From Escherichia phage AV117, in sequence record OR352947.1: 64,000 bases of DNA; one strand, given 5' to 3'. Of this stretch, positions 4,480 to 39,441 are shown piece by piece. Under the pieces are notes generated by a model. It did no database searches. It saw only the letters and a list, made by a program, of their open reading frames with translations, and was not told where the DNA came from. A program made the position numbers and the translations under genes. How positions within the stretch are numbered: the first letter of the stretch is position 1; the number at the start of each line of letters is the position of its first letter.

Positions 4480-4518
4480 GATAGGACTACTATATCATAG
4501 TCCTACTTAGTTGTAAAC
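4480..4518 (-). promoter_or_regulatory. early promoter within the palindrome GGACTACTATATCATAGTCC
   Basis: GTTTAC-N18-TATAGT followed by AGTCCTATC then GAGGA RBS. Confidence 0.55.
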
Positions 4519-4530
4519 ACTTTTATGAAA

Positions 4531-5151
4531 TTAAAGTTGAAGATACCACCCGTTGTAGTTGCTCTTGCGGACGATTTTCTTTAGGTCTTCATGGTCTCCC
4601 ACGAACTTTATAGAATAAGAGAAGACGTCAGGTGAGGTTTCTTTGACATCTAATATAATAATGCAATCTGCGACTCTATGGTTCAAGAAGGGCCCTATAT
4701 TGATTCCATTACCACCCGGATAATCACCGCTGTATCCTGTGGTAACCGAAATCCATTTAGAATCTATCTGGTGTGTCTTGACTTCTACACGAATTCCACA
4801 ATACTTGGGGTGGGCCAACACGTCCCATGCATACGTGTACGGGTCTTCTACGTCTTCAATACCTTTATTAACATACCCGTCTAGCCAATTTGCTACTACA
4901 TACTCTGCAAAGACCGCAACCTTACAACGTCGAACTACATCTTCTTTGTTTTGGCCAGGATTTTGGCTCAGGGAATACCGAGCAGTGTCAGCAATCTTCA
5001 CCTTCATTTCACTAGTCAAAAACTCATTCGACAGGATAAATGTCGGAAGATTCTTCAGTCTCAACAGTCCCAAGTTCGTCTTTACCATAGATACCTCTGA
5101 TGTGTAGTTCGCCAAAATAAATGCGGTCACCTTCTTCAAGATATTCTGCAT
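4531..5151 (-). CDS. hypothetical protein, possible DenB-position nuclease
   Basis: 206 aa in the T4 denB map position; weak D...EVK pattern reminiscent of PD-(D/E)xK; true start probably internal. Confidence 0.35.
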   Translation of the reverse strand: MQNILKKVTAFILANYTSEVSMVKTNLGLLRLKNLPTFILSNEFLTSEMKVKIADTARYSLSQNPGQNKEDVVRRCKVAVFAEYVVANWLDGYVNKGIEDVEDPYTYAWDVLAHPKYCGIRVEVKTHQIDSKWISVTTGYSGDYPGGNGINIGPFLNHRVADCIIILDVKETSPDVFSYSIKFVGDHEDLKKIVRKSNYNGWYLQL

Positions 5152-5362
5152 CTACCGGTGGGATTTCAATAACAACTTCGTCGCATTCTAACCAGCCGTA
5201 GTGTGCATCACCAGGATGTTTTACCAATTTAGCGCAATAAACTGATTTACACTTATGATGACCACGAAGATTAGCAATTTTGGATTCTGATACGTCAAAT
5301 GGATGAATCATAATTACCCCTAAAGAAAAAGGGGACCGAAGTCCCCAATTATTATTCTGCAA
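5024..5362 (-). CDS. hypothetical protein (true start probably internal Met near 5311, about 95 aa)
   Basis: the track ORF runs upstream through the rIIB terminator hairpin; internal MIHPFD start has an AGGGG RBS. Confidence 0.4.
   Translation of the reverse strand: MQNNNWGLRSPFSLGVIMIHPFDVSESKIANLRGHHKCKSVYCAKLVKHPGDAHYGWLECDEVVIEIPPVDAEYLEEGDRIYFGELHIRGIYGKDELGTVETEESSDIYPVE
5331..5346 (-). terminator. intrinsic terminator (UUCG tetraloop) immediately after rIIB
   Basis: ggggac-cgaa-gtcccc; minus RNA GGGGACUUCGGUCCCC followed by UUUUUCUUU. Confidence 0.65.
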
Positions 5363-6299
5363 ATAATTCAGTAACGTCTGAAATTACTTCATAACGACAA
5401 GTACGCATCTTAGCATCACCGTAGTCAACTGGGATAGATACAACATCACGTGGATGAACTTTAACCTTAACAACTTTATCTGAGCTAGAACCAAAGTAAC
5501 GAATATATGATTTAGCACAAACATGTAGACCACGGGAGCAGGTTTGAGTATCATCATCGTTAACACGAGTACGAGGCATTGAAACAACTTTACCAGGCGA
5601 GTTATCAAATGTGCCGCTATAGCAATCTAAATAGTCCTTACGAACTACTTTCCACGCATAGAAATGCCCATCTTCAGTGATTTCAATATCGTTTGCAACC
5701 AAGAAGTCGAATAAACGTTGTACAGCTTTTTCGCTTGGGTTTTCTAACAGGTTTTCAAGGAATGGCAGATAGAATTTAAAGTCTTCGCCTTTTTCCATGG
5801 AATCAATAATACGGTTAACCAGTCCTGAACGAATTTCTATACCTTGATAAAATAAACTACCACCTTCAATAGTAACATTACCGTCAACAAACTTACTAAT
5901 AGCTTTCTTGATGTTAATAAGTTCGACAGCTTTACTAAGGTTTCCTGCGACCAAATTAGCTTTAATTTCTTCAAAATTTGCATGACTTGATGGGGTCGCA
6001 TTGTATGCTACGCGTCCTTCAATAATTGAAATAAATTTAGATGACGCGTTCCATACGATTTCTGGACGATGACCGCCGATAATAGGTTCATCATTTTCTG
6101 GAACTTCTTCGATTACATAAGAGGCATCGTTTGCTTCAGGGACAACGCCTTCTGCTTTAAAATTCTTAACAATCTTACGAAGAGTATCTGTTGAAATGTC
6201 GAAGTAATCGGCAATTTCTTTACGAGTCCATTTGCCCGATTCAACCAGGCCATAAGCTTCTAACTGTTCTTCTTGGGACAAGCATTTAATATTGTACAT
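5352..6299 (-). CDS. rIIB: rIIB membrane-associated lysis-inhibition protein
   Basis: 315 aa, matching my recollection of T4 rIIB (312 aa); directly downstream of rIIA. Confidence 0.9.
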   Translation of the reverse strand: MYNIKCLSQEEQLEAYGLVESGKWTRKEIADYFDISTDTLRKIVKNFKAEGVVPEANDASYVIEEVPENDEPIIGGHRPEIVWNASSKFISIIEGRVAYNATPSSHANFEEIKANLVAGNLSKAVELINIKKAISKFVDGNVTIEGGSLFYQGIEIRSGLVNRIIDSMEKGEDFKFYLPFLENLLENPSEKAVQRLFDFLVANDIEITEDGHFYAWKVVRKDYLDCYSGTFDNSPGKVVSMPRTRVNDDDTQTCSRGLHVCAKSYIRYFGSSSDKVVKVKVHPRDVVSIPVDYGDAKMRTCRYEVISDVTELFAE

Positions 6300-28569: not shown

Positions 28570-28932
28570 TTAAAAGAATTTAAATTTTTTCTTGGTCCGT
28601 TCATTAAAAGCTTGTTGTACTTGCATTGTAACACATTTTTCAACATGCGGTGCAAGTTCTGCTTTTCTGTCCTGGTCAAGAACTGCAAAGTCCATTACGA
28701 TTTTACCATCAACCCAGTCTAGTTTTGTAATATAGACTATATGATGAGAACCATCTTCAAGTGTAATCAGAATCTCTTGAATGACATTTTCCATTGCTGA
28801 ACGGATAATTTTAAGAGATTCATTAAACACTCGTTCTTTGCGAATGTCTTCCCCTTCCGAAGAAGGGGATTCATCAACGATTTCTAGATTTAAATCATCG
28901 AGATTATTCATCGAAATCTTCCATTTCGTCAA
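28570..28932 (-). CDS. 40: gp40-like protein (head vertex assembly chaperone position)
   Basis: 120 aa between 41 and uvsX as in T4; sequence identity not verified. Confidence 0.5.
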   Translation of the reverse strand: MTKWKISMNNLDDLNLEIVDESPSSEGEDIRKERVFNESLKIIRSAMENVIQEILITLEDGSHHIVYITKLDWVDGKIVMDFAVLDQDRKAELAPHVEKCVTMQVQQAFNERTKKKFKFF

Positions 28933-30076
28933 GGTCGTTTTCTATATCTGCTGCAGACGGAGCATCAGAAGTTTTAACCGGAACTTTAGTTGTGGCTTTG
29001 CAATTAATAAGGTCATTAACAGCGTCATCAACTTCTTTAATAGAAGAGATAGCACCTAGTTTATATTTAGTTTCAATTGCATCTCGGAAAGGTTTGTGTT
29101 TAAACAAAGGTCCCCAGAATTCTACACAATCAGTAGCTTTAGCACGCCATGATTTTTCTTCACGAATCATTTCGCCAGTTTCTTCGTCAAGGAATTCACG
29201 AGCATACCAACCAGCTTTAGGCTTAACTACAAAACCAATTTCAGTTGCCATTTCTAACAAGCCACTGAATGGGTCGATACCACCATCAAAATTAACAGTG
29301 ATTGGGAAAGTAGATTTTTCTTTAACGGTGCGAGATTTTTCTGCTTTCAACGTGAAGTCATAACCGGTCAATTCTGTACCTTCTTTAACCTGACGTTTAG
29401 AGATAAAAAATACCGTGTTGGCAGAATAAAGAATACCTGTACCACCACCCATAATCTCTTTAGGATACAATCCGCCGATTTCCATTGCTGTATGGTTGAT
29501 TGCAACACATGGAATATCTTTAATAGTCAGATAAGGAGTCACAATGCGGAACAGAGATTTAAGTGCCTTAGCACGAGACATATCACCTACAACTTTCTCG
29601 TTCAATGCATCTTCAGTTTCTTTCTTAGATGCAGTATTACCGATTGAATCGATAAAGATAATAACTTTATCACCGCGTTCAATCGCGTCAAGCTGATTAG
29701 TCATATCAACTTTAAGTTGTTCGACAGATTGAATCGGAGTATGAACTACACGGTCTAAATCAACACCCATTGAACGAAAATAAGATTCTGAAGCACCAAA
29801 TTCCGAATCATAGAACAAACAAATTGCATCTTTATATTTCTTCATATATGCTGCAACCATGGTCAGCCCAAACAACGTTTTAAAGTGTTTAGAAGGAGCA
29901 GCAAAAATAGTTAAGCCTGATTGCAACCCGGCATTCAGTGCACCACCTAATGCAATATTCAACATCGGAATACGAGTAGGGACTTCATCGCGATTATTAA
30001 ACAACTTAGACTTAGTCAAGTCTGCAGTCATTTTAGAAGTAGAAGCTTTAATCAGACGAGATTTTAAATCAGACAT
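28904..30076 (-). CDS. uvsX: UvsX recombinase (RecA/Rad51-like)
   Basis: 390 aa; RecA core, Walker-type motifs; length as T4 UvsX. Confidence 0.95.
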   Translation of the reverse strand: MSDLKSRLIKASTSKMTADLTKSKLFNNRDEVPTRIPMLNIALGGALNAGLQSGLTIFAAPSKHFKTLFGLTMVAAYMKKYKDAICLFYDSEFGASESYFRSMGVDLDRVVHTPIQSVEQLKVDMTNQLDAIERGDKVIIFIDSIGNTASKKETEDALNEKVVGDMSRAKALKSLFRIVTPYLTIKDIPCVAINHTAMEIGGLYPKEIMGGGTGILYSANTVFFISKRQVKEGTELTGYDFTLKAEKSRTVKEKSTFPITVNFDGGIDPFSGLLEMATEIGFVVKPKAGWYAREFLDEETGEMIREEKSWRAKATDCVEFWGPLFKHKPFRDAIETKYKLGAISSIKEVDDAVNDLINCKATTKVPVKTSDAPSAADIENDLDEMEDFDE

Positions 30077-30175
30077 TGTATTTTTCCATAGGCATCATTA
30101 TATTTTACTCATGTTTAAAAGATAAGACGATTATATACTAACGGTTATACAGCATTTAAAACTTTAAACAGGCTC

Positions 30176-30724
30176 TTAACGAGCCCATTTGATAATTTCT
30201 GTAATCAAATTATTACGTTCGCTTGCATTAAATCCTATAACTTTGTTAGCACCATCATGATTAAGTAATTGATACGTTTGGATTTTGTTATGAATTGCAA
30301 ACTCTTCAAAATATGAAATGACTGTATTAAAACCGAATGAAGACAAAGTAATAAGGTCGTCTTCAAAACTTTCAGTCATTTCGTTACGTGTTAAAATAAT
30401 TGTGAACACATCATGGTTTTGGCAAAGACGAACATAATCCTGTTCATAAACGTCAAGAACCGAGTCCACATCTTGTCGAATACGTCCATAAACCCAGTTA
30501 CTAATATATCCACGGTCTAACAGATAAATCTTAGTAGGGTCTAAATAATTCAACATCGTTTCGAAACAGCCAACTTCATTTCGAGACTTAACATCGAAAC
30601 GTCCATCAACTGTTCGTTTAGGGAAATCAATCTTTACATATCTTTCACTAATTTCCATTATGTCATTAATGAAAGTTGTTTTACCAGCATTATCCGGGCC
30701 ATCTACTAAAATAATTTTAGCCAT
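30176..30724 (-). CDS. thymidylate-kinase-like P-loop nucleotide kinase
   Basis: 182 aa; P-loop ILVDGPDNAGKTT (compare Tmk GxEGxGKTT) and LLDRGY (Tmk DRY-like motif). Confidence 0.55.
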   Translation of the reverse strand: MAKIILVDGPDNAGKTTFINDIMEISERYVKIDFPKRTVDGRFDVKSRNEVGCFETMLNYLDPTKIYLLDRGYISNWVYGRIRQDVDSVLDVYEQDYVRLCQNHDVFTIILTRNEMTESFEDDLITLSSFGFNTVISYFEEFAIHNKIQTYQLLNHDGANKVIGFNASERNNLITEIIKWAR

Positions 30725-30725
30725 T

Positions 30726-31625
30726 TTATTCCTCGATTACGACATCTTCATATTTAGGTATATTATACGGCGAAGAAATTAAAGCATTAAAGTAGATGAA
30801 CTCGCCAAGACCTGGATGGAATACTTCTTCAGGATTTTCGAAGTATTGAATCTTCGGACGTCCTTTAAGAATTTGATAGTACTCAGTTTTAGTTGGTTTA
30901 AAAATTCGAATCAGCGCTTCTTCAGGATACTTATTTCTGTCGAAGCTATTATTTGGATCGGTTATATAAAGCGGTTGACCTAATTGAATTGCACATTCAA
31001 CCACTTGTTCAAAACGATAGCACGGGTCACTAATTCGAAATGGATGAAAAATACCATCTAGATGAATAGGAGCCAAATCACCTACAAGACGCTGCATGAT
31101 GGAAGGACGTATAACTTTCTGCGTTACGATAATCTTATTACCATCTGCACCTGCGTTAACCAGCACTTCTTTTTGACGTTCATTCAACACAGTAGTTTGA
31201 AGTGAACGATTAACAGACAACATGTCGGTTTTTAAGAATTCGTCAATATAAAAACGTGGTTTATTAGGGTCTGCAGTGATATTGAAATTGAATTCTACGT
31301 CAAAAGTGCCGTCATATCCAGTGATATCTGTGATTAGAAAATCACAATCATAATAATCAATTAATGAATCAACCACAAATTCATTTTCAGACCAGAAATA
31401 TTTACGAGTGTTATATGCGTTATCTTTATACCATAATGGAACAAACTTAAATTCTGGGAAAAGTCGTTCACATTCTTTAATATCAGATGCATTACGTGGA
31501 TATGTAATCACATCACCCGGATTAGCACGGTGCAAATGAAGTTGGAAGTTGCCATCCTTAAGGATAGCATACTGTCCAGTTTCATAAGACCGCATACTCA
31601 AGATAGGTACGCGGAAAATAGCCAT
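30726..31625 (-). CDS. hypothetical enzyme (299 aa) in the T4 beta-gt map position
   Basis: no recognisable motif; 1-nt gap to downstream kinase and shared stop/start with the hydroxymethylase. Confidence 0.5.
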   Translation of the reverse strand: MAIFRVPILSMRSYETGQYAILKDGNFQLHLHRANPGDVITYPRNASDIKECERLFPEFKFVPLWYKDNAYNTRKYFWSENEFVVDSLIDYYDCDFLITDITGYDGTFDVEFNFNITADPNKPRFYIDEFLKTDMLSVNRSLQTTVLNERQKEVLVNAGADGNKIIVTQKVIRPSIMQRLVGDLAPIHLDGIFHPFRISDPCYRFEQVVECAIQLGQPLYITDPNNSFDRNKYPEEALIRIFKPTKTEYYQILKGRPKIQYFENPEEVFHPGLGEFIYFNALISSPYNIPKYEDVVIEE

Positions 31626-32341
31626 TAGTCAAGGAATCCTTTAACATAATCAAAATCACGTTCAAACACATGGGCACTTACCATGGTATGAGTATAATCA
31701 CCAACTTCTACACCACATTCTTTAGCGATATAATGAAGTAATTTTCCTTGGAGATAAAAATCCAACTGCATAACAACAGCACAGTTCTGAGAACGCATAT
31801 GGCAGTGGGTATAAAGCTTACCATCACGAATATAATAAGTCACTGAGTCAGTACATGGATATTCAAGTGTTTCGTCCGAATCAAGCAAAGCCTGATCTGA
31901 ACTTTCAAGAATTTGAAACACAACTCTTCGAGAGTTAGGTTTTTCTTTAAGTTCTTTTAGAAGAGTTGGTAACTGGGCCGCAATGCGAGGACCGTAGAAA
32001 GTGTTGAAGTTTGCAGGCAAAGCATCTGATTTCGGTTTAGAAATAAATTTAGCGACGTTAGGATATGCCTTAAATGCTTCTTCTGCATCAGTACCACCAG
32101 AAATCATAAATTTCCAGAAATCTTCAGCATATTCATAAGAGATGCGATTAATACGTGGGTCGGTCATTTTGAATGATGAAGGGGTATCAACAACTACTGT
32201 CATAGACCCAATTTCATTACAACGTCCAATACGAGAATCAGTAACGAACTGTGGATTTTCTAAAATTTCACGATTGACAGCTTTAAATGCGGATTGAAAA
32301 TCTTCGGCTTTAATATATTTCATTGTGTTATGTTTTCCCAT
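31625..32341 (-). CDS. 42: deoxycytidylate 5-hydroxymethyltransferase (gp42-type, thymidylate-synthase fold)
   Basis: 238 aa; PNSRRVVFQIL, YPCTDSVTYYIRDGKL (catalytic Cys), MRSQNCAVVMQLDF align by eye with the T4 gp42 blocks I recall; an Asp appears at the base-specificity position. Confidence 0.78.
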   Translation of the reverse strand: MGKHNTMKYIKAEDFQSAFKAVNREILENPQFVTDSRIGRCNEIGSMTVVVDTPSSFKMTDPRINRISYEYAEDFWKFMISGGTDAEEAFKAYPNVAKFISKPKSDALPANFNTFYGPRIAAQLPTLLKELKEKPNSRRVVFQILESSDQALLDSDETLEYPCTDSVTYYIRDGKLYTHCHMRSQNCAVVMQLDFYLQGKLLHYIAKECGVEVGDYTHTMVSAHVFERDFDYVKGFLD

Positions 32342-32354
32342 GTTTACCTCAATA

Positions 32355-32390
32355 CAGTTATTATATACTCAATTCATAAAGCTTATTTGA
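32355..32390 (-). promoter_or_regulatory. candidate MotA-dependent middle promoter upstream of the hydroxymethylase gene
   Basis: minus strand AAGCTTTA (MotA-box-like) - 11 nt - TATAAT, then GAGGT RBS; approximate. Confidence 0.4.
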
Positions 32391-32478
32391 ATTTCTTAGC
32401 GATGTTGATATAACGTAGAGCTTCGGCTTAGTATTCCAATTGAACAGGTCCTTTAATCACTTTAGCCGCTTTAGTTTC

Positions 32479-32502
32479 AAAAAGGCCCTTATGGGCCTTT
32501 TT
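32479..32502 (-). terminator. strong symmetric hairpin terminator after the 386-aa gene
   Basis: aaaaaggccc-ttat-gggccttttt: 10-bp stem flanked by A5/T5, could terminate in either direction. Confidence 0.55.
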
Positions 32503-32579
32503 AAGAATTTGTTCGTTGCTGTTAATTTTAATAGTCAAAATCTCTTCGTTAAGTTGGTGGTTAAAAGTTTTTCTAGAAA

Positions 32580-33740
32580 TCATTCTGGGTACCTCAAAGC
32601 GTCATCAGAGTTAGTTATATCAATAATAGATATAGAGTTTTCTGATAACCCATTTTTAGATAACTGACGTTTATAATATCTTTCACAATATGTACACGTC
32701 GTCCCACAGATTTCATTAGCACAATCGAAATCTGGATGTTTGAACCACCTTTTTTCTAAAAAGCCGTCTAACAAAGAGGTTTCAATATTTACCGTATGTG
32801 AAAACTCAGTCTCATTTTCAAGAGTGAAAATGGTCTCTAAAGGCTTCCACAATTCCAACAAATTACCTTCAAATTTTTCAGAAGCATAAGCTTCAAGAAC
32901 TTTCAAAATGTAGTCTGTGCTACCTGTACGTCCTGAAACTTTGAATTGAGTGATACCAATATCATTATAAAGTTTCAAATCTTGAGGACGAACAAAACGA
33001 GTTCTCAACCAGTTAAATGGGTCTGTATCACGAGCTTTAATACAGTGTTGCATTGGATATCCATTTAAGGATTTGGCATCATCTACTGTAACGTCAGTGC
33101 TATGGAAAATATAGCAAGAGTCACGATAGCTACAATGTGTTGTATACCCTTTACCAGCATTAGAACAGAACTCATTTACAAGAACTTCAAATATTATATT
33201 GTTCTTATTACAAAACTCTGCTGCACGTTTCAGGAAAGAAACTGAACGGTTCTTATGAATTCCACAGCAGACCTTTTTGATATTATATTGGTCATGCAAG
33301 TATTTGATTTGAGTTACAGCATCGACATGTAGAATTGTTGAAACTTCAATCTCAATGTCTTTATTGACTTCACGAACAATTTCCATAACAACAGGGTTAG
33401 CGATAGTAATACGCCATACGCCTATTGACCAAAGATACTGAACATAATCCTGAATAGCTTTCTTCTTCCACTCAACTAGTTCTCTTTTTGAACCAGGATT
33501 TATCGTGTTGAGTGTATAGTTAAAGCAAATACCTAATTCGTTACAACGTTTAACGTAATCTTCTAACATCTTTTTGTCAACGTCAGGAAGCCTAAAATCA
33601 GGTCTGGCTGCTACAAAAGCCATTTCTCTTGTAGAGCCGTATACTTCGTTTATCAAGCTATTAGGATAAGTTTTATTGAGCTCTACGATTTTATCAAGAA
33701 GAGCTAAATCAAAATTCGTTCCGATTTTAAAAGTATTCAT
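32580..33740 (-). CDS. hypothetical Cys-rich enzyme (386 aa)
   Basis: C-terminal cluster CANEICGTTCTYCERYY (contains C-x3-C-x2-C) plus internal VCCG and CS..AGKGYTTHCSYRDSC; possible metal/Fe-S site; function unknown. Confidence 0.5.
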   Translation of the reverse strand: MNTFKIGTNFDLALLDKIVELNKTYPNSLINEVYGSTREMAFVAARPDFRLPDVDKKMLEDYVKRCNELGICFNYTLNTINPGSKRELVEWKKKAIQDYVQYLWSIGVWRITIANPVVMEIVREVNKDIEIEVSTILHVDAVTQIKYLHDQYNIKKVCCGIHKNRSVSFLKRAAEFCNKNNIIFEVLVNEFCSNAGKGYTTHCSYRDSCYIFHSTDVTVDDAKSLNGYPMQHCIKARDTDPFNWLRTRFVRPQDLKLYNDIGITQFKVSGRTGSTDYILKVLEAYASEKFEGNLLELWKPLETIFTLENETEFSHTVNIETSLLDGFLEKRWFKHPDFDCANEICGTTCTYCERYYKRQLSKNGLSENSISIIDITNSDDALRYPE

Positions 33741-33800
33741 TTTTTTTTTTGCATCCCACGTTAATTGATGCGATGGTTTTTGCAGGTCTTACTTAAATTA

Positions 33801-34202
33801 TTATAGATTCGGTTTATATGATTTAAATGTTTCGAATTCGCCTTTATTCATAAGAGCTTTGAATTCGTCAGGACGCATAGCTTTGTCGTCGATAATCCAA
33901 TCATATACTGGTTTATGTGTTAGCAAATTATGGTACTTCAATCCAATGTTTGCCAAGTTCTGAATCAGACTTGGGAGAATGTCAATTGCTATACGACCAG
34001 GACCGACTGACTTCATACCGCGAGCAGTGTAAAGCGTTATGGTATGCCCTGCATCATACAGGGCATTAATGGCAGACACCATTTCGACGTCTGGTTTGAA
34101 GTTCACGTAATCACGATTGTTATTCCACTCTGTTATACAATCATCGACATCAAAACAAAGATTAAGCATGTTTTCTACACGGTGCATTAGATTCGTTCCC
34201 AT
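33801..34202 (-). CDS. HAD-superfamily phosphatase, small cap-less (KdsC/GmhB-like) form
   Basis: 133 aa; motif I FDVDDCIT (DxDx[TV]), LYTAR, K, DWIIDD; overlaps the upstream gene by 16 nt. Confidence 0.6.
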   Translation of the reverse strand: MGTNLMHRVENMLNLCFDVDDCITEWNNNRDYVNFKPDVEMVSAINALYDAGHTITLYTARGMKSVGPGRIAIDILPSLIQNLANIGLKYHNLLTHKPVYDWIIDDKAMRPDEFKALMNKGEFETFKSYKPNL

Positions 34203-35872
34203 TGATGAGTGATATCGCCACCGATTGGACGATAAGAAACACCGGTTTCTTTATCAGTTAGTACCCATTTACCAGGATTTTTTGTAATCAGAGTAGCCGT
34301 TACAGGTTCTGCTACGTCATAACTAATAGAGCCGTCCTGAAGTACACGGCCCATGTTACGTAATTGCTTAGTCAGAAGTTCCATACCTTTATAATATGCG
34401 GCTACCGCTTTAAGTGGATTATTCTTGAAATAACCACCTAATGCAATCCAGATAATTGCCGCTGCCAAATGATGATACTCGTTAAACGAACTCATCTTTC
34501 CATATTTGTAAACTAATGGATTGATGTTAATAGACACATTACAAGTTGTTTCATCGATAGTAAACTGTCCCCAGGTCGGATTAGCATTGAATTCATCATA
34601 ACCTGAAACAGCGTAAAGCACTTTAGCTTCATCATACAATTTTGGGCCGTAAATCTTGGTTTCGCCAAAATATCCACGAGGGTCGATAAACTTGACTTCG
34701 CCGTTATCAGTAATCATAGTATTACTGAAGTTCGGGTCACCATGAATAACAGAGTACTGTCCCTGAGAACGGTTATGATAACGAATAAGGTGTTCTAAAG
34801 CTTGTTTCAGCATTGGTTTCAGACGCCCAATCTTAGTGTAGTTCACATGTGTGATTTTACCAAATGAATCAATCAATGGTTGAATACTTTCACAACGATC
34901 AATGACTTTAGTATAGAATTCTTTAGTGAAATCACGACGAACAGTTTCAGGACTTACAAAATAAGTGTCTGTGCTGAATTTCAGTGCGTCTAAAATTGCA
35001 TCAACAATTTGTGGACGAGCAAGACTCGATTTGGATTTAATATATTCAAATGCTGGCTTACCTTTAATGCGTTCCATTTCAAAGTTATTTTCATTAACAG
35101 AAACTAACTGAGGAACTGAATCTGATTTCACTTTAAGATACCATGAAATCTCATCTTTCTGAAGAGCTCGACCCTGTTCGGTTAATGCGAATTTAGTTAC
35201 AGTTTCTTCACCAATTTCAACTGCATTAAAACTACGATTAAGTTCACGAACTTCATGAGCTTTTTCAAGTTTAGGCATATCACCTAAATCAATTAGATTC
35301 ATAAGCTCTGATTTATTGAATGCGCTGCCGTAAAGGAATTCTACGAAATCGCGTCCTTTGCAGTATTCATGAATTTCCTCATCAGTAGAACCCATATAGA
35401 ATTCCCAGTCTTTGAACTGATAAATTCCTACAACATTACCACCTGTTGAACCTACGTTAGTGATATTTTCACCGTCGAAATTATATCGACATTCGTCACC
35501 CTTAACATAGATTGCGTTAACATTCCAAGACCATGAACCAAAATCAGGAATAATATCACACCAGTTAACAATTACATTATGGCCGTCTAAATCTTTGTGC
35601 AATTTAGCAAGAGCATAAGCAGAACCATACGCTTCATCAACTGTACGAATAGTCACATTGAACCCTTCTTGCTCACAATAAGCTCGAACAGTTTCAGCAA
35701 ATTTTGAATGAACTACTACAATAATTTCATCTGCGCCAAGGTCAGAATAAATTGTATACAAATTGCTCAGAATAGTGTCTTGTTTATAATTAACAAGCAC
35801 CTTAGGAATATGATGCGTTATTGGATACAAACGAGTTGCCAGTCCAGCACCAAGAATAACAGCTTTTTTCAT
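34187..35872 (-). CDS. bifunctional sugar-1-phosphate nucleotidyltransferase (N-terminal) / APH-like anomeric sugar kinase (C-terminal)
   Basis: 561 aa; N-terminal AVILGAGLATRLYPIT..IPK (RmlA/GlmU-type GxGTRL motif); C-terminal VIHGDPNFSNTMI and FIDPRG (HxDxxxxN catalytic loop and IDxxG of aminoglycoside/choline-kinase fold). Confidence 0.7.
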   Translation of the reverse strand: MKKAVILGAGLATRLYPITHHIPKVLVNYKQDTILSNLYTIYSDLGADEIIVVVHSKFAETVRAYCEQEGFNVTIRTVDEAYGSAYALAKLHKDLDGHNVIVNWCDIIPDFGSWSWNVNAIYVKGDECRYNFDGENITNVGSTGGNVVGIYQFKDWEFYMGSTDEEIHEYCKGRDFVEFLYGSAFNKSELMNLIDLGDMPKLEKAHEVRELNRSFNAVEIGEETVTKFALTEQGRALQKDEISWYLKVKSDSVPQLVSVNENNFEMERIKGKPAFEYIKSKSSLARPQIVDAILDALKFSTDTYFVSPETVRRDFTKEFYTKVIDRCESIQPLIDSFGKITHVNYTKIGRLKPMLKQALEHLIRYHNRSQGQYSVIHGDPNFSNTMITDNGEVKFIDPRGYFGETKIYGPKLYDEAKVLYAVSGYDEFNANPTWGQFTIDETTCNVSININPLVYKYGKMSSFNEYHHLAAAIIWIALGGYFKNNPLKAVAAYYKGMELLTKQLRNMGRVLQDGSISYDVAEPVTATLITKNPGKWVLTDKETGVSYRPIGGDITHQWERI

Positions 35873-35913
35873 GTTGTGGTCCTCATTGGTAAGTAGGAGT
35901 ATTGTACACTATT

Positions 35914-36057
35914 CTAGTTAAAGCATTCATACTTTGCTTGTAGTCCAATCATAATCCATCCGATTATAAGAGTCGGAACCATTACTGGAGCCGTTAAGCT
36001 CCAGTAGATAGTCATGACAAGCATCAATAGTAAAAGTCCTATTGTTATTGCTTTCAT
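35914..36057 (-). CDS. small membrane protein (about 47 aa), translationally coupled to the isomerase gene
   Basis: MKAITIGLLLLMLVMTIYWSL...; ATG overlaps the SIS gene stop (ATGA); GAGG RBS; approximate. Confidence 0.35.
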   Translation of the reverse strand: MKAITIGLLLLMLVMTIYWSLTAPVMVPTLIIGWIMIGLQAKYECFN

Positions 36058-36689
36058 TGTTCGCCTCGTAACATGGCACCTAGTGCACCGCCAGGGTGGA
36101 ACTTAAGGAAGTCATTAGAGGTAAATCCACGCTCAGACGAAAGGTTGATAGCAAACGTATCGATAAGCGCTAACAACAATGTAGTGGACATAGTCGGAGC
36201 CAGAGAATTCTCATCAACCTCTACTGCGATGCCTGTACAGAAAGAGTAATCAAAAAGGGCTTCATTTTCTTGTGGAATGTCTGGGTTACAATGCAACAGA
36301 ATCTGTTTGACGTTAGGACGAATCATTTTAAGATGCTTAGCCACGCCTATCATTTCTTCAGTTTTACCAGAACGACTAATATGAATCAACACATCATTAG
36401 GCGCAATGAATCCTGCATCACCGTGAGAATAATGCCCAGTGTTCAAGTACATACTCGGGATACCGAGTGAAGCAAATGTCTCAGAAGCTTTAGTTGCAAT
36501 ATTAGCATTCTTACCAACACCCGTAATAATTACTCGGCTTTCATAATTACTAAGTCCAGGGCGTCGAAGAGTTTCTAGAATAGCATTATAACGAGCAGGG
36601 TTTTGACTAATTACTTTGGCCATAGCGGCCAAAGAAGAAGCTTGTTTTATGATTGCGTCAATAGCGATAGTAATAGGAGTAGTTTTCAT
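36054..36689 (-). CDS. arabinose-5-phosphate isomerase-like SIS-domain protein (KpsF/GutQ-type, no CBS domains)
   Basis: 211 aa; FASLGIPSMYLNTGHYSHGDAGFI, ISRSGKTEEM, LAPTMSTTLLLALIDTFAI and RGFTSNDFLKFHPGGALG align block-for-block with the KpsF motifs I recall. Confidence 0.78.
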   Translation of the reverse strand: MKTTPITIAIDAIIKQASSLAAMAKVISQNPARYNAILETLRRPGLSNYESRVIITGVGKNANIATKASETFASLGIPSMYLNTGHYSHGDAGFIAPNDVLIHISRSGKTEEMIGVAKHLKMIRPNVKQILLHCNPDIPQENEALFDYSFCTGIAVEVDENSLAPTMSTTLLLALIDTFAINLSSERGFTSNDFLKFHPGGALGAMLRGEQ

Positions 36690-36729
36690 ATTTCTCTCAT
36701 TTAATTAGTTTACCGTCCATGACATTATA

Positions 36730-39441
36730 TCAAAAATCGAACATATCGAACAGAGATGCTTTCTTCTCGTAATCGAGTTTCGCTGCTGATGTGAATCCTT
36801 CAAGTGGTTTAATAAATGTCTTCTCAAGGAGAACAGTGTAGTCCATCCAATGAAGTACGTCGTCTTTAATTAAATCTGTGATTTCAGTACCAGAAGGCCA
36901 TGCGATACATTTATCACCGAATGGGTTTCCTTCACGTAAAGGCAGAACATATACTTTTTCACCTTCTACAACTTGCGGTGCATCGATATTACCTTTGATA
37001 GCCCGGTTATACGTCAGAATTCCACGAATATGGAATGGACATTTAGGACCAGGGAATCCACCTACATCATATTTAGCAATGTTATTCGCAGAAGATACCG
37101 ACGCGATGCTAATATAATTCAATTGACGGAATTCTTTTTCAAACTCTTTAAAATATTCTTGTAATGATTCTTCACCTTCTTGAAGCATACGACGAATACA
37201 TTCTTTAAGAGCTTTCTGTACTGCTTTAGGAGTCGAAGATTTCTGAGTCTCTAGACCCATGATTTTGAGTTTAGGCTCAGCGTAACGAGTACCTTCCATA
37301 TCCCACACGTTTAATGCATAACGTTTCTTACCAGTCCAGAATCCGCCAATACCTTTAGAACCAAGCGGAGGCCCAGCGATAGCTTCTCGGTCCATGAACA
37401 TTAAGTGTTGTTTATTGTTCATGTATTCACACATTTCACGGAAACCTCTATCAATAGCTGGTTCCATACGTTCACGTGCAAACTTATCTAAGAAGTCTAC
37501 CCAATGGTTGGTATCACGGAATTTAGATTCACCAACCTTATCGATAATTTTATCAGCAGATACGTAAATAGAGTCTGTATCACCGTAAAGAACGAAAGCT
37601 TCACCTTCTGTGCCACAAACTTCATTCAGATATTCATTAACTTTACGTTCAATCCACTGTAAAGCCATTTGACCAAATGTTGTGATTGCAGTAGCATTAC
37701 GCAAATCATAATAACGGAACCAAACGTTTCCAAGTGCACCATAAAGTGAGTTGATAAGCAATTTACGGTTAATTTGGGCAGTCATACCTGCAACTTCAGT
37801 ACGTTGAGCTCTAAACAACATTTCATTAAGAGATTTAGCAGACAACTTTTTAATCTTTTCTTTAATCTCATCACTGAAGTCGAAACGATAATCAACATCT
37901 AATGGTTCGTCAACAGAAAGATTAGGATTATGCAATGCCTCTTTAATTATTTCACCATTACGTTGAGCTGCAAGCATGTAACCTTTATGTTCTTTACGTT
38001 GATTAAAGACCTTAGTGATTTCGGTTGGAACTACACCGTCACGGTCTTTATAATACATCATGCCGTTAGGAGAACAACTGTACACATCAGAAGGACGCTC
38101 AGCGATTGCGTTAATATAATCATGCAGTGGAGCTACTTTAAACGTTCCTGCTATTGTTTCTGGGCTAATATTCACTTGGCGAATAATACTTGGATACAGA
38201 GATGTAAGGTCGAAACTCATTACATATTTGTATCGATTTGGAATAGGTTCCTTAACAAAAGCGCCAGGATAAGGTTGAACCGGGTGAGAACGACCTTGTG
38301 GAATCACCTTGTTCTGCTCTTTAAGGCTATTAAAAATAATAGCATCCCATGTTTTAATTGGACTAAACACAGATTGAATCTGTATCTTAGCATAATAACC
38401 CATGTCCAAGCTCAAGTTAATGAACTGACGTTTACCATCAATTTGCAATACACGATACACGTCGATAATGTTATAAGAAATATATCGTTGGTGATTGCTT
38501 TCACGAAGCTTAGAAATAGGGCCGTCATATTTCAGTTTACCAACGTTCAATTCAAATTCTGAAATGTAATCCAGAGAATATGATGGTTGATTGGTAAAAG
38601 AGAATTTTTTGTAAAGGTCAATGTAATCAAGAACAGAGATACCGAACAATGTAATGATTTCACGAGAACCATACATGTTTTCGATAACTTTAACACGAGT
38701 TTTACGATGTGGTGACAACCGTTTTGCTGTGGATTCGCCAAAAATATTCTTGATTCGGTTATACACATATGGAATATCAAATGACTCAACGTTCCATCCA
38801 GTCAAAATGACAGGAGTTTTCTGTTGCCAGAAGTTGAGATATTCCATCAACAATTCTTTTTCGTTATCGAACGGCATATAAATGATTTTATCGATAATTT
38901 CGGATGGAACTTCATCACCACCTTGTTCTTGAAGCTTAGCCGCAATTTCGATAGACCATTCTTCTACATTACCATATGGAGAATTCAATAGATCAAATAC
39001 GTAGAACCTGTCGTCAATTGAGTCATAATGGGTGATAGCATCAATCGGATGTTTTGCTTGTGACGGCTCAGGGAACCCGTCCGGAGATGTTACTTCGATG
39101 TCGAAGTTAGCCACACGAATTTTTGTATGGTCGTATTTGATTTCATAGTTATAAGTGTCAGACAAATACGCTAATTTGAAATCGTCCATGCCAAGTGCTT
39201 CAAGTCCGATATCTTCCATGCGTTTAATCCATTGGGAGGCATCACGCATATTGGCGAACAACTTACGAGTACACGGCTTACCGTAGATATCGAAATATTT
39301 CGTAGCCTGACTTTCTGGACAATGAGCAAACAGTGATGGTTTATATTCTACTTCACGAGTACGTTCACGGCCATTAGAATCGATGTAACGTTCAAAAATT
39401 GAATCACCAATCTGTTCAACCGTTAAGTAAAATTCTTTCAT
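36730..39441 (-). CDS. 43: DNA polymerase gp43 (family B)
   Basis: 903 aa; exo motifs (FDIEV, YNIIDV), polymerase motifs (DxxSLYPS, YGDTDS); N-terminus MKEFYLTVEQIGDSIFERYIDSNGRERTREVEYKPSLFAH matches the RB69 polymerase as I recall it. Confidence 0.97.
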   Translation of the reverse strand: MKEFYLTVEQIGDSIFERYIDSNGRERTREVEYKPSLFAHCPESQATKYFDIYGKPCTRKLFANMRDASQWIKRMEDIGLEALGMDDFKLAYLSDTYNYEIKYDHTKIRVANFDIEVTSPDGFPEPSQAKHPIDAITHYDSIDDRFYVFDLLNSPYGNVEEWSIEIAAKLQEQGGDEVPSEIIDKIIYMPFDNEKELLMEYLNFWQQKTPVILTGWNVESFDIPYVYNRIKNIFGESTAKRLSPHRKTRVKVIENMYGSREIITLFGISVLDYIDLYKKFSFTNQPSYSLDYISEFELNVGKLKYDGPISKLRESNHQRYISYNIIDVYRVLQIDGKRQFINLSLDMGYYAKIQIQSVFSPIKTWDAIIFNSLKEQNKVIPQGRSHPVQPYPGAFVKEPIPNRYKYVMSFDLTSLYPSIIRQVNISPETIAGTFKVAPLHDYINAIAERPSDVYSCSPNGMMYYKDRDGVVPTEITKVFNQRKEHKGYMLAAQRNGEIIKEALHNPNLSVDEPLDVDYRFDFSDEIKEKIKKLSAKSLNEMLFRAQRTEVAGMTAQINRKLLINSLYGALGNVWFRYYDLRNATAITTFGQMALQWIERKVNEYLNEVCGTEGEAFVLYGDTDSIYVSADKIIDKVGESKFRDTNHWVDFLDKFARERMEPAIDRGFREMCEYMNNKQHLMFMDREAIAGPPLGSKGIGGFWTGKKRYALNVWDMEGTRYAEPKLKIMGLETQKSSTPKAVQKALKECIRRMLQEGEESLQEYFKEFEKEFRQLNYISIASVSSANNIAKYDVGGFPGPKCPFHIRGILTYNRAIKGNIDAPQVVEGEKVYVLPLREGNPFGDKCIAWPSGTEITDLIKDDVLHWMDYTVLLEKTFIKPLEGFTSAAKLDYEKKASLFDMFDF

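Follow-up and report, generated by a model that had tools for sequence, protein, structure and literature searches.

Why should a T4-type phage carry a sugar-phosphate isomerase gene directly behind its DNA polymerase gene? E. coli already has KdsD and GutQ, and a phage copy is thus not obviously required. We considered this question in the window, a stretch of 64,000 nucleotides from Escherichia phage AV117 (sequence record OR352947.1), which represents a portion of a T4-type phage genome with a G+C content of ~37% and in which the large ORFs of the region all lie on the minus strand. The protein is very probably a single-domain arabinose-5-phosphate isomerase, predicted to feed the synthesis of UDP-arabinofuranose for DNA arabinosylation. 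The evidence determined here comprises fold, family, active-site conservation, identity to RB69 gp55 and gene order.

Gene order and identity of the island

The isomerase ORF spans 36054..36689 on the minus strand, begins with ATG and encodes 211 aa. Its start lies 40 bp downstream of the stop codon of gene 43 (36730..39441), which encodes a 903-aa DNA polymerase, and it is therefore the first gene of a block of seven to eight genes bounded by gene 43 and uvsX (28904..30076). The translation contains TFASLGIPSMYLNTGHYSHGDAGFI, HISRSGKT, LAPTMSTT and RGFTSNDFLKFHPGGALG. An earlier note on this DNA had recognized the motifs of a KpsF/GutQ SIS domain in the protein and had placed its gene at the head of an island directly downstream of gene 43; all of the quoted motifs are present in the translation, and the short gap to gene 43 confirms that the gene opens the block. 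From gene 43 towards uvsX, the features are:

36724..36732, minus strand: possible promoter TGATATAAT, extended -10-like, read from the sequence; it overlaps the gene 43 stop codon and lies 35 nt upstream of the isomerase ATG
36054..36689, minus strand: predicted single-SIS-domain arabinose-5-phosphate isomerase, 211 aa, identical to RB69 gp55; predicted to interconvert ribulose 5-phosphate and arabinose 5-phosphate
35914..36057, minus strand: 47-aa hydrophobic ORF whose ATG overlaps the isomerase stop codon (ATGA); PHROG 3610, 1e-26
34187..35872, minus strand: bifunctional protein of 561 aa, nucleotidyltransferase (N-terminal) and kinase (C-terminal) by Pfam and NCBIfam; 97% identical to the HY126 protein at the AfhE position
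33801..34202, minus strand: HAD-type phosphatase (AfhF equivalent), TIGR01689 at 4e-13; 100% identical to the HY126 protein
32580..33740, minus strand: peptidase-U32-family protein (RB69 gp50), 386 aa; Pfam 6e-11, PHROG 5757
31625..32341, minus strand: thymidylate synthase homologue, 98% identical to RB69 gp48
30726..31625, minus strand: putative DNA arabinosyltransferase 1, 299 aa, PHROG 3891; RB69 gp46:47 equivalent, assignment from PMC13326640
30176..30724, minus strand: nucleotide kinase-like protein (RB69 gp45), 182 aa, PHROG 761, with a weak dTMP kinase match; PMC13326640 Table 1

The possible promoter is absent from the output of the consensus promoter scan, which missed it because it has no -35 match. 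Between gene 43 and uvsX the order is isomerase, kinase/nucleotidyltransferase, HAD phosphatase, U32 protein, thymidylate synthase homologue, glycosyltransferase and kinase, and the content and order of the island match RB69 gp45–55 and the HY126 Afh cluster (order compared in 308Ecol101PP, HY126 and RB69). The proposal that the phage copy adjoins a DNA-modification enzyme holds at the level of this block but not for the immediate neighbourhood, which consists of the 47-aa ORF and the sugar nucleotidyltransferase-kinase; the thymidylate synthase homologue and the putative DNA arabinosyltransferase lie 3.7–5 kb further down the block.

The 47-aa ORF is annotated in related phages, with a marked transmembrane segment in phage LC53, and one record names it a ‘putative phosphosugar isomerase’. 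Its reading as an isomerase fragment is unsupported, since it matches PHROG 3610 alone (function unknown), and the same position in the locus of a distant homologue is occupied by an unrelated soluble protein of 92 aa. There is likewise no second isomerase behind the RefSeq label ‘phosphoheptose isomerase’, which is the name of PHROG 1238 attached to the HAD phosphatase. For that phosphatase, a 128-aa form starting at 34187 is annotated in related records. The 299-aa ORF of the putative arabinosyltransferase is intact in the window and split (46/47) in the RB69 record.

The isomerase is 100% identical to RB69 gp55 (ORF055c, NP_861745.1), which bears the RefSeq name arabinose 5-phosphate isomerase. 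Across the island (30000–37000), the DNA is 97.5–98.6% identical to many Mosigvirus genomes, including PNJ-6, F2, HX01, HY126 and JS09, and most of those records annotate the gene as a D-arabinose 5-phosphate isomerase. DNA identity of the region is 97.4–97.7% to RB69 and 97.5% to HY126; at ~97.5% over the region, the window is not RB69 itself. Homologues of the isomerase were found in 275 phage records, mainly of T4-like phages, with Escherichia, Shigella, Acinetobacter, Serratia, Enterobacter, Yersinia and Erwinia as hosts, plus Sphingomonas phage PAU. The gene is thus already known: the identical protein is annotated, has its own PHROG family and is discussed in two publications (PMC6024577, PMC13326640). 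The value of the present finding is confirmation, the published logic of the RB69 arabinosylation island having been recovered from raw sequence.

A separate observation concerns the U32 protein of the island, which is conserved at 82% identity or more in 221 phage records. Where hosts are named, they are mostly enterobacteria, with a Shewanella phage in addition; these bacteria are facultative anaerobes. None of the 221 matches apparently comes from an Acinetobacter phage, and 57 Acinetobacter phage records carry the isomerase together with the kinase/nucleotidyltransferase. In Serratia phage LC53, the gene directly after the U32 gene encodes chorismate mutase, the enzyme that makes prephenate, and a chorismate mutase is also annotated beside the U32 gene in a Klebsiella phage record. 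The small ORF that follows the U32 gene in Mosigvirus was considered as a degraded chorismate mutase, and no similarity was detected. The U32 family has been linked to oxygen-independent, prephenate-dependent hydroxylation, including that which yields 5-hydroxycytidine in 23S rRNA (PMC5727448, PMC6599085, PMC10990095). The U32 gene of the island may encode an oxygen-independent cytosine hydroxylase and so offer a way to 5-hydroxycytosine under anaerobic conditions, in addition to the thymidylate synthase homologue, which depends on oxygen and flavin. In the list of Lee et al. (PMC13326640), the U32 protein appears only as ‘sugar or heterocycle reductase’.

Family assignment, fold and active site

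Profile searches place the protein among the arabinose-5-phosphate isomerases. Pfam recovered SIS (PF01380) as its sole domain, at residues 51–181 (1e-10), and the NCBIfam matches were led by kpsF (2e-32), KdsD (7e-31) and GutQ (9e-23); the next matches, to SIS domains of regulators, were no better than 1e-6. PHROG 5670, named ‘arabinose 5-phosphate isomerase’, matched at 4e-116. At the level of sequence, the profile match is far beyond chance. The scores do not reach the curated NCBIfam cut-offs (112.9 versus 203.7 bits for TIGR00393 and 107.7 versus 505 for KdsD) because the full-length models include a CBS half and only their SIS half can be matched; in TIGR00393, positions 2–153 of 268 were aligned.

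No CBS domain was detected by Pfam. With only 30 residues between the end of SIS and the C-terminus at residue 211, the protein has no room for a CBS pair; the phage homologues are all of similar length (~205–226 aa). A hidden CBS pair or a longer ORF was also rejected, as the stop codon lies at 36054–36056 and the next ORF encodes the unrelated 47-aa hydrophobic peptide. The earlier statement that the phage protein, unlike the bacterial enzymes, is devoid of the CBS pair is consequently well founded.

The choice between the KpsF family and GmhA, or another SIS enzyme, had been named in the earlier note as the check on which its assignment would turn. The best profile matches are KpsF, KdsD and GutQ, and no GmhA model appeared among the matches even at E<=10. 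Sedoheptulose-7-phosphate isomerase (GmhA) was rejected on these grounds and on the rank of its structures, which stand at 25th or lower in the Foldseek search, with 16% identity and rmsd values of ~5 Å. Sequence comparison thus supports the assignment of the protein as a predicted KpsF/GutQ/KdsD-type SIS isomerase rather than a GmhA.

Searches against the PDB with the single sequence returned 3ETN, a single-domain enzyme of Bacteroides fragilis (2.6e-25), 5UQI, the E. coli CFT073 protein c3406 with bound arabinose 5-phosphate (4e-23), and 2XHZ, the SIS domain of E. coli KdsD (3.5e-19). A family profile built from 27 phage and metagenomic homologues, with identities down to 39%, extended these matches to 4e-39 for 5UQI and 2e-37 for 3ETN. 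From the same alignment, AlphaFold produced a model with a mean pLDDT of 95.4, a pTM of 0.91 and a core of alternating strands and helices. Foldseek comparison of this model with the PDB gave 2XHZ, 5UQI and 3ETN as top matches, with rmsd values of 2.0–2.5 Å at 29–31% identity and TM-scores, normalized to the target, of 0.89 for the single-domain enzymes 5UQI and 3ETN. By sequence, by profile and by fold, the leading matches are therefore the same three arabinose-5-phosphate isomerases.

Conservation extends to the catalytic centre. Residues K60, H89, E112, E157 and H198 of the isomerase align with K59, H88, E111, E152 and H193 of KdsD, which we take to be its active-site or catalytic residues from the KdsD structure and mutagenesis, and all five are invariant in the 27-sequence family alignment. 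In 2XHZ, K59 is mutated to alanine. The C-terminal motif FHPGGALG aligns with YHPGGALG in 5UQI and RHHGGYLG in 3ETN.

Arabinose supply and rival explanations

Arabinose on RB69 DNA was described by Thomas et al. 2018 (PMC6024577), who pointed to the 211-residue ORF055c and to ORF53_52c, both in the module bounded by the polymerase gene and uvsX, as candidate genes of UDP-arabinose synthesis. The modified base is now described as arabosylated 5-hydroxycytosine and not as a hydroxymethylcytosine derivative, with gp48 making 5-hydroxy-dCMP (Lee et al., NAR 2026, PMC13326640); RB69 gp48 is an experimentally confirmed 5-hydroxy-dCMP synthase (Table 1 of the same paper). Arabinosylated 5-hydroxycytosine is present in the virion DNA of RB69 and of other Mosigvirus phages (PMC13326640, PMC13390438). 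Lee et al. repeat the UDP-arabinose supply proposal for gp55 and list its assignment as computational (PMC13326640). For HY126, He et al. 2026, as relayed in PMC13326640, assign arabinose-5-phosphate 1-kinase and UDP-arabinose pyrophosphorylase activities to AfhE and the dephosphorylation of arabinose 1,5-bisphosphate to arabinose 1-phosphate to AfhF, so that these downstream enzymes turn arabinose 5-phosphate into UDP-arabinose. Given the kinase activity relayed there for AfhE, the predicted product of the isomerase is the substrate of the next enzyme. The earlier note had suggested that arabinose 5-phosphate is diverted to make a sugar donor for DNA, and this coincides with the published model for the identical RB69 gp55 (PMC6024577, PMC13326640).

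These elements can be assembled into a pathway in which the modification chemistry and the downstream enzyme activities are taken from the literature, and the isomerase activity of the protein and the reason for a phage copy are what we infer. The isomerase, produced by the phage in the course of infection, would draw ribulose 5-phosphate out of the pentose phosphate pathway of the host and convert it to D-arabinose 5-phosphate. The 561-aa kinase/nucleotidyltransferase would phosphorylate C1, the HAD phosphatase would then remove the 5-phosphate, and the nucleotidyltransferase domain of the 561-aa protein would make UDP-arabinofuranose. The thymidylate synthase homologue of the same block would supply the base as 5-hydroxy-dCMP, and phage glycosyltransferases would attach arabinose to 5-hydroxycytosine in the phage DNA.

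A phage copy would, under this scheme, supply arabinose 5-phosphate beyond the output of the host Kdo pathway. A genome of ~167.6 kb with a G+C content of ~37% holds ~62,000 cytosines; at one to two arabinoses per cytosine and at least a hundred genomes per burst, demand would presumably exceed the normal Kdo flux. The missing CBS domains might also free the isomerase from regulation of the host type and permit high flux. With arabinose on its cytosines, phage DNA is protected against restriction enzymes and CRISPR systems, and it is recognized by type IV restriction enzymes; both properties influence the choice of therapeutic phages.

Independent support comes from gene linkage. Serratia phage LC53 has the same order of isomerase, short ORF and kinase/nucleotidyltransferase, as does a 310-kb metagenomic contig whose isomerase homologue is 46% identical. 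In some homologues of the 561-aa protein, HAD, SIS, nucleotidyltransferase and kinase domains, in this order, are joined in a single polypeptide of 912–955 aa; in one such fusion, the SIS part shares 33% identity with the phage isomerase (E 6e-29) and retains GxGK, SHGD, SxSGxTEE and HPGG. Independently of the phage literature, gene fusion thus links the three phage activities into one pathway. The linkage is not universal: the kinase/nucleotidyltransferase homologue occurs in 373 phage records versus 275 for the isomerase, and about 100 records carry the former without any isomerase homologue, which indicates that the sugar module can exist without the isomerase. In Dhakavirus AnYang, the position held by the isomerase in RB69-like phages is occupied by an unrelated 166-aa ORF with no family match.

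Three other explanations were weighed, and each is much less likely than an arabinose-5-phosphate isomerase. The best placed of them, although improbable, is that the enzyme acts on another sugar phosphate, such as a hexose phosphate, and that arabinose 5-phosphate comes from host KdsD or GutQ. Fold alone cannot fix the substrate, because the Listeria SIS protein 3FXA, which has the same single-SIS architecture, is presumably a glucose-6-phosphate isomerase. Its match to the phage protein is significant (1.8e-13, and 3.8e-22 with the family profile), and the phages that carry the downstream module without an isomerase gene are compatible with a host source of arabinose 5-phosphate. The match to proven arabinose-5-phosphate isomerases is, however, much stronger, and in the profile alignments the motifs G(V/M)GK, HGD and (A/T)P(T/S), common to the phage family and the proven isomerases, are replaced in 3FXA by GCGTSG, HGT and MLAT. 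The predicted product is, moreover, exactly the substrate that PMC13326640, relaying He et al., gives for the next enzyme of the operon, which again favours arabinose 5-phosphate.

Still less probable is an auxiliary metabolic gene that would maintain or redirect the synthesis of host envelope components (Kdo, LPS or capsule) in the infected cell and be unrelated to DNA modification. Kdo and capsule synthesis are indeed what KdsD, KpsF and GutQ serve in cells, and RefSeq notes a similarity to a capsule expression protein. Against this stands the surrounding island, in which Pfam, NCBIfam and PHROG revealed no Kdo-8-phosphate synthase, Kdo-8-phosphate phosphatase or CMP-Kdo synthetase; the isomerase is instead embedded in the arabinosylation cluster, its order with the kinase/nucleotidyltransferase is kept across distant phages, and SIS is fused to the kinase/nucleotidyltransferase module in other viruses. 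A non-catalytic, sugar-phosphate-binding sensor or regulator of the RpiR/MurR/HexR type is the least probable of all. Weak profile matches (HexR, AlsR and MurR SIS domains, 1e-6 to 3e-3) and structural matches to such regulators (E ~1e-7) speak for it; against it, the regulator matches fall short of those to the isomerases by over 20 orders of magnitude, the protein has no DNA-binding domain and its catalytic residues are all invariant.

The arabinose-5-phosphate isomerase reading may extend further. Tentatively, and with more doubt than confidence, we suggest that the isomerase may not simply duplicate host KdsD but may be the first enzyme of a viral pathway, complete in itself, that leads from ribulose 5-phosphate to NDP-D-arabinose and is distributed far more widely than RB69-like phages. 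If true, such a route implies D-arabinosylated DNA or glycans in the viruses of the fused-protein contigs, apparent giant viruses of eukaryotes. The fused modules, the isomerase-less phages and the U32 protein may be worth more than the isomerase gene.

The contigs that encode the fused HAD–SIS–nucleotidyltransferase–kinase proteins are giant-virus-like in content. They also carry genes for MutS-HNH, an RNA polymerase Rpb2 subunit, a 1553-aa family B polymerase, a ubiquitin hydrolase and a Ulp1-type protease. One further fusion of this type derives from a Ceratiomyxa transcriptome.

Comparison with known systems

The closest known system is RB69 and the other Mosigvirus phages (HY126, HX01, JS09, ST0, F2 and others; PHROG 5670), whose orthologues represent the same protein (100% in RB69), in the same position after gene 43 and within the same island. 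Relative to the RB69 record, the ORFs of the window are intact where RB69 has split genes 46/47 and 52/53, whereas the isomerase itself shows no difference.

Among cellular proteins, the single-domain enzymes c3406 (5UQI) and that of B. fragilis (3ETN) resemble the phage protein in architecture: all consist of ~200 aa with a SIS domain only and no CBS domains, at 29–31% identity and rmsd values of 2.4–2.5 Å, and share the motifs GxGK, HGD, SxSG..E, APT/APS and H(P/H)GG. They differ in setting, as c3406 and the B. fragilis enzyme are cellular and belong to capsule or Kdo synthesis, whereas the phage enzyme is predicted to feed nucleotide-sugar synthesis for DNA glycosylation. The phage family has features of its own with respect to these two enzymes, namely an N-terminal helical region (residues 1–45) and a conserved HCNP segment. 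E. coli KdsD, GutQ and KpsF have the same SIS fold and active-site residues (2XHZ, rmsd 2.0 Å) but possess a C-terminal CBS pair that the phage protein lacks. With GmhA, the phage isomerase has only the general SIS fold in common.

The fused proteins (P0204, P0209, P0229 and others) hold counterparts of the isomerase (33% identity) and of the kinase/nucleotidyltransferase (29–35%), together with a phosphatase. In these proteins, one polypeptide unites what three genes encode in the phage, and BLAST revealed no similarity between their HAD domain, which is of a different subfamily, and the phosphatase of the phage.

The U32-family protein and its neighbours

Window 32580-33740, minus strand: U32-family protein of 386 aa within the island, the equivalent of RB69 gp50
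Window 32428-32583, minus strand: small ORF of 51 aa, after the U32 gene and before that of the thymidylate synthase homologue
LC53 locus (L012) 4492-6002: U32 region of the Serratia phage, including a chorismate mutase gene

Oxygen-independent, prephenate-dependent hydroxylations have been linked to the U32 proteins RlhA, TrhP and UbiU/V (PMC5727448, PMC6599085, PMC10990095). The phage protein may be a cytosine C5 hydroxylase that is likewise oxygen-independent and prephenate-dependent; its sole label in the NAR 2026 paper is ‘sugar or heterocycle reductase’ (PMC13326640). In LC53, the gene immediately following the U32 gene matches CM_2 (1.7e-11) and encodes a chorismate mutase; one is also annotated adjoining the U32 gene in a Klebsiella phage record. 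The U32 protein retains at least 82% identity over 221 phage records. Most of the hosts named in them are enterobacteria, and a Shewanella phage is also among them. Acinetobacter phages are apparently not represented among these 221 matching records, although they carry the remaining module genes.

No similarity was found between the window small ORF and the LC53 chorismate mutase encoded at the same position. The RB69 counterpart of the small ORF (RB69 locus L008, 6257-6496) encodes 79 aa, and other relatives encode 40-53 aa. The window copy has an internal deletion and a stop, downstream of which the RB69 C-terminal residues can still be read in frame.

Flanks of the isomerase gene and phages that lack it

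Window 36724-36732, minus strand: TGATATAAT, which resembles an extended -10 element and lies 35 nt before the isomerase start
Window 35914-36057, minus strand: strongly hydrophobic 47-aa ORF whose start overlaps the isomerase stop codon (ATGA)

The extended -10-like element overlaps the stop codon of gene 43 and, judged from its sequence, is a putative promoter that could serve the island separately; it lacks a -35 match. On the other side of the isomerase, the 47-aa ORF is kept in RB69, HY126 and LC53 and matches PHROG 3610 (1e-26). The name ‘putative phosphosugar isomerase’, given to it in one GenBank record, is supported by nothing.

The kinase/nucleotidyltransferase, at roughly 28-43% identity to the window protein, is encoded without an isomerase homologue in about 100 phage records, which belong to Dhakavirus, Klebsiella, Proteus and Vibrio phages. 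Escherichia phage AnYang (Dhakavirus; L011 4440-9175), with a 43% kinase/nucleotidyltransferase match, carries imm after gene 43 together with an unrelated 166-aa ORF, for which no family match was found. Such phages may draw arabinose 5-phosphate from the host, or may use a different sugar.

Fused versions of the arabinose module

Single polypeptides of 912-955 aa combine four activities of the phage module: phosphatase, isomerase, nucleotidyltransferase and kinase.

L005 7001-9781: fused protein P0204
L009 8001-10862: fused protein P0209
L010 5545-8283: fused protein P0229
Ceratiomyxa fruticulosa transcriptome: fused protein P0211

The fusion-bearing contigs look like giant viruses from their gene content, which includes MutS-HNH, Rpb2, a 1553-aa PolB, a ubiquitin hydrolase, a Ulp1 protease and an SNF2 helicase.

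Phosphatase naming and reading frames split in RB69

Window 33801-34202, minus strand: HAD phosphatase, matching the capsule biosynthesis phosphatase model TIGR01689 (4e-13)
Window 30726-31625, minus strand: one intact 299-aa ORF
Window 34187-35872, minus strand: one intact 561-aa ORF

PHROG 1238 and RefSeq records, including that of RB69 (RB69p051), name the HAD phosphatase ‘phosphoheptose isomerase’; this looks like a propagated misnomer, which could wrongly imply a second isomerase. In the RB69 reference record, the 299-aa ORF is split into 46/47 (L008 4598-5498) and the 561-aa ORF into 52/53 (L008 8095-9781). The RB69 splits have been stated to be sequencing errors (PMC13326640), an account with which both intact window ORFs are consistent.
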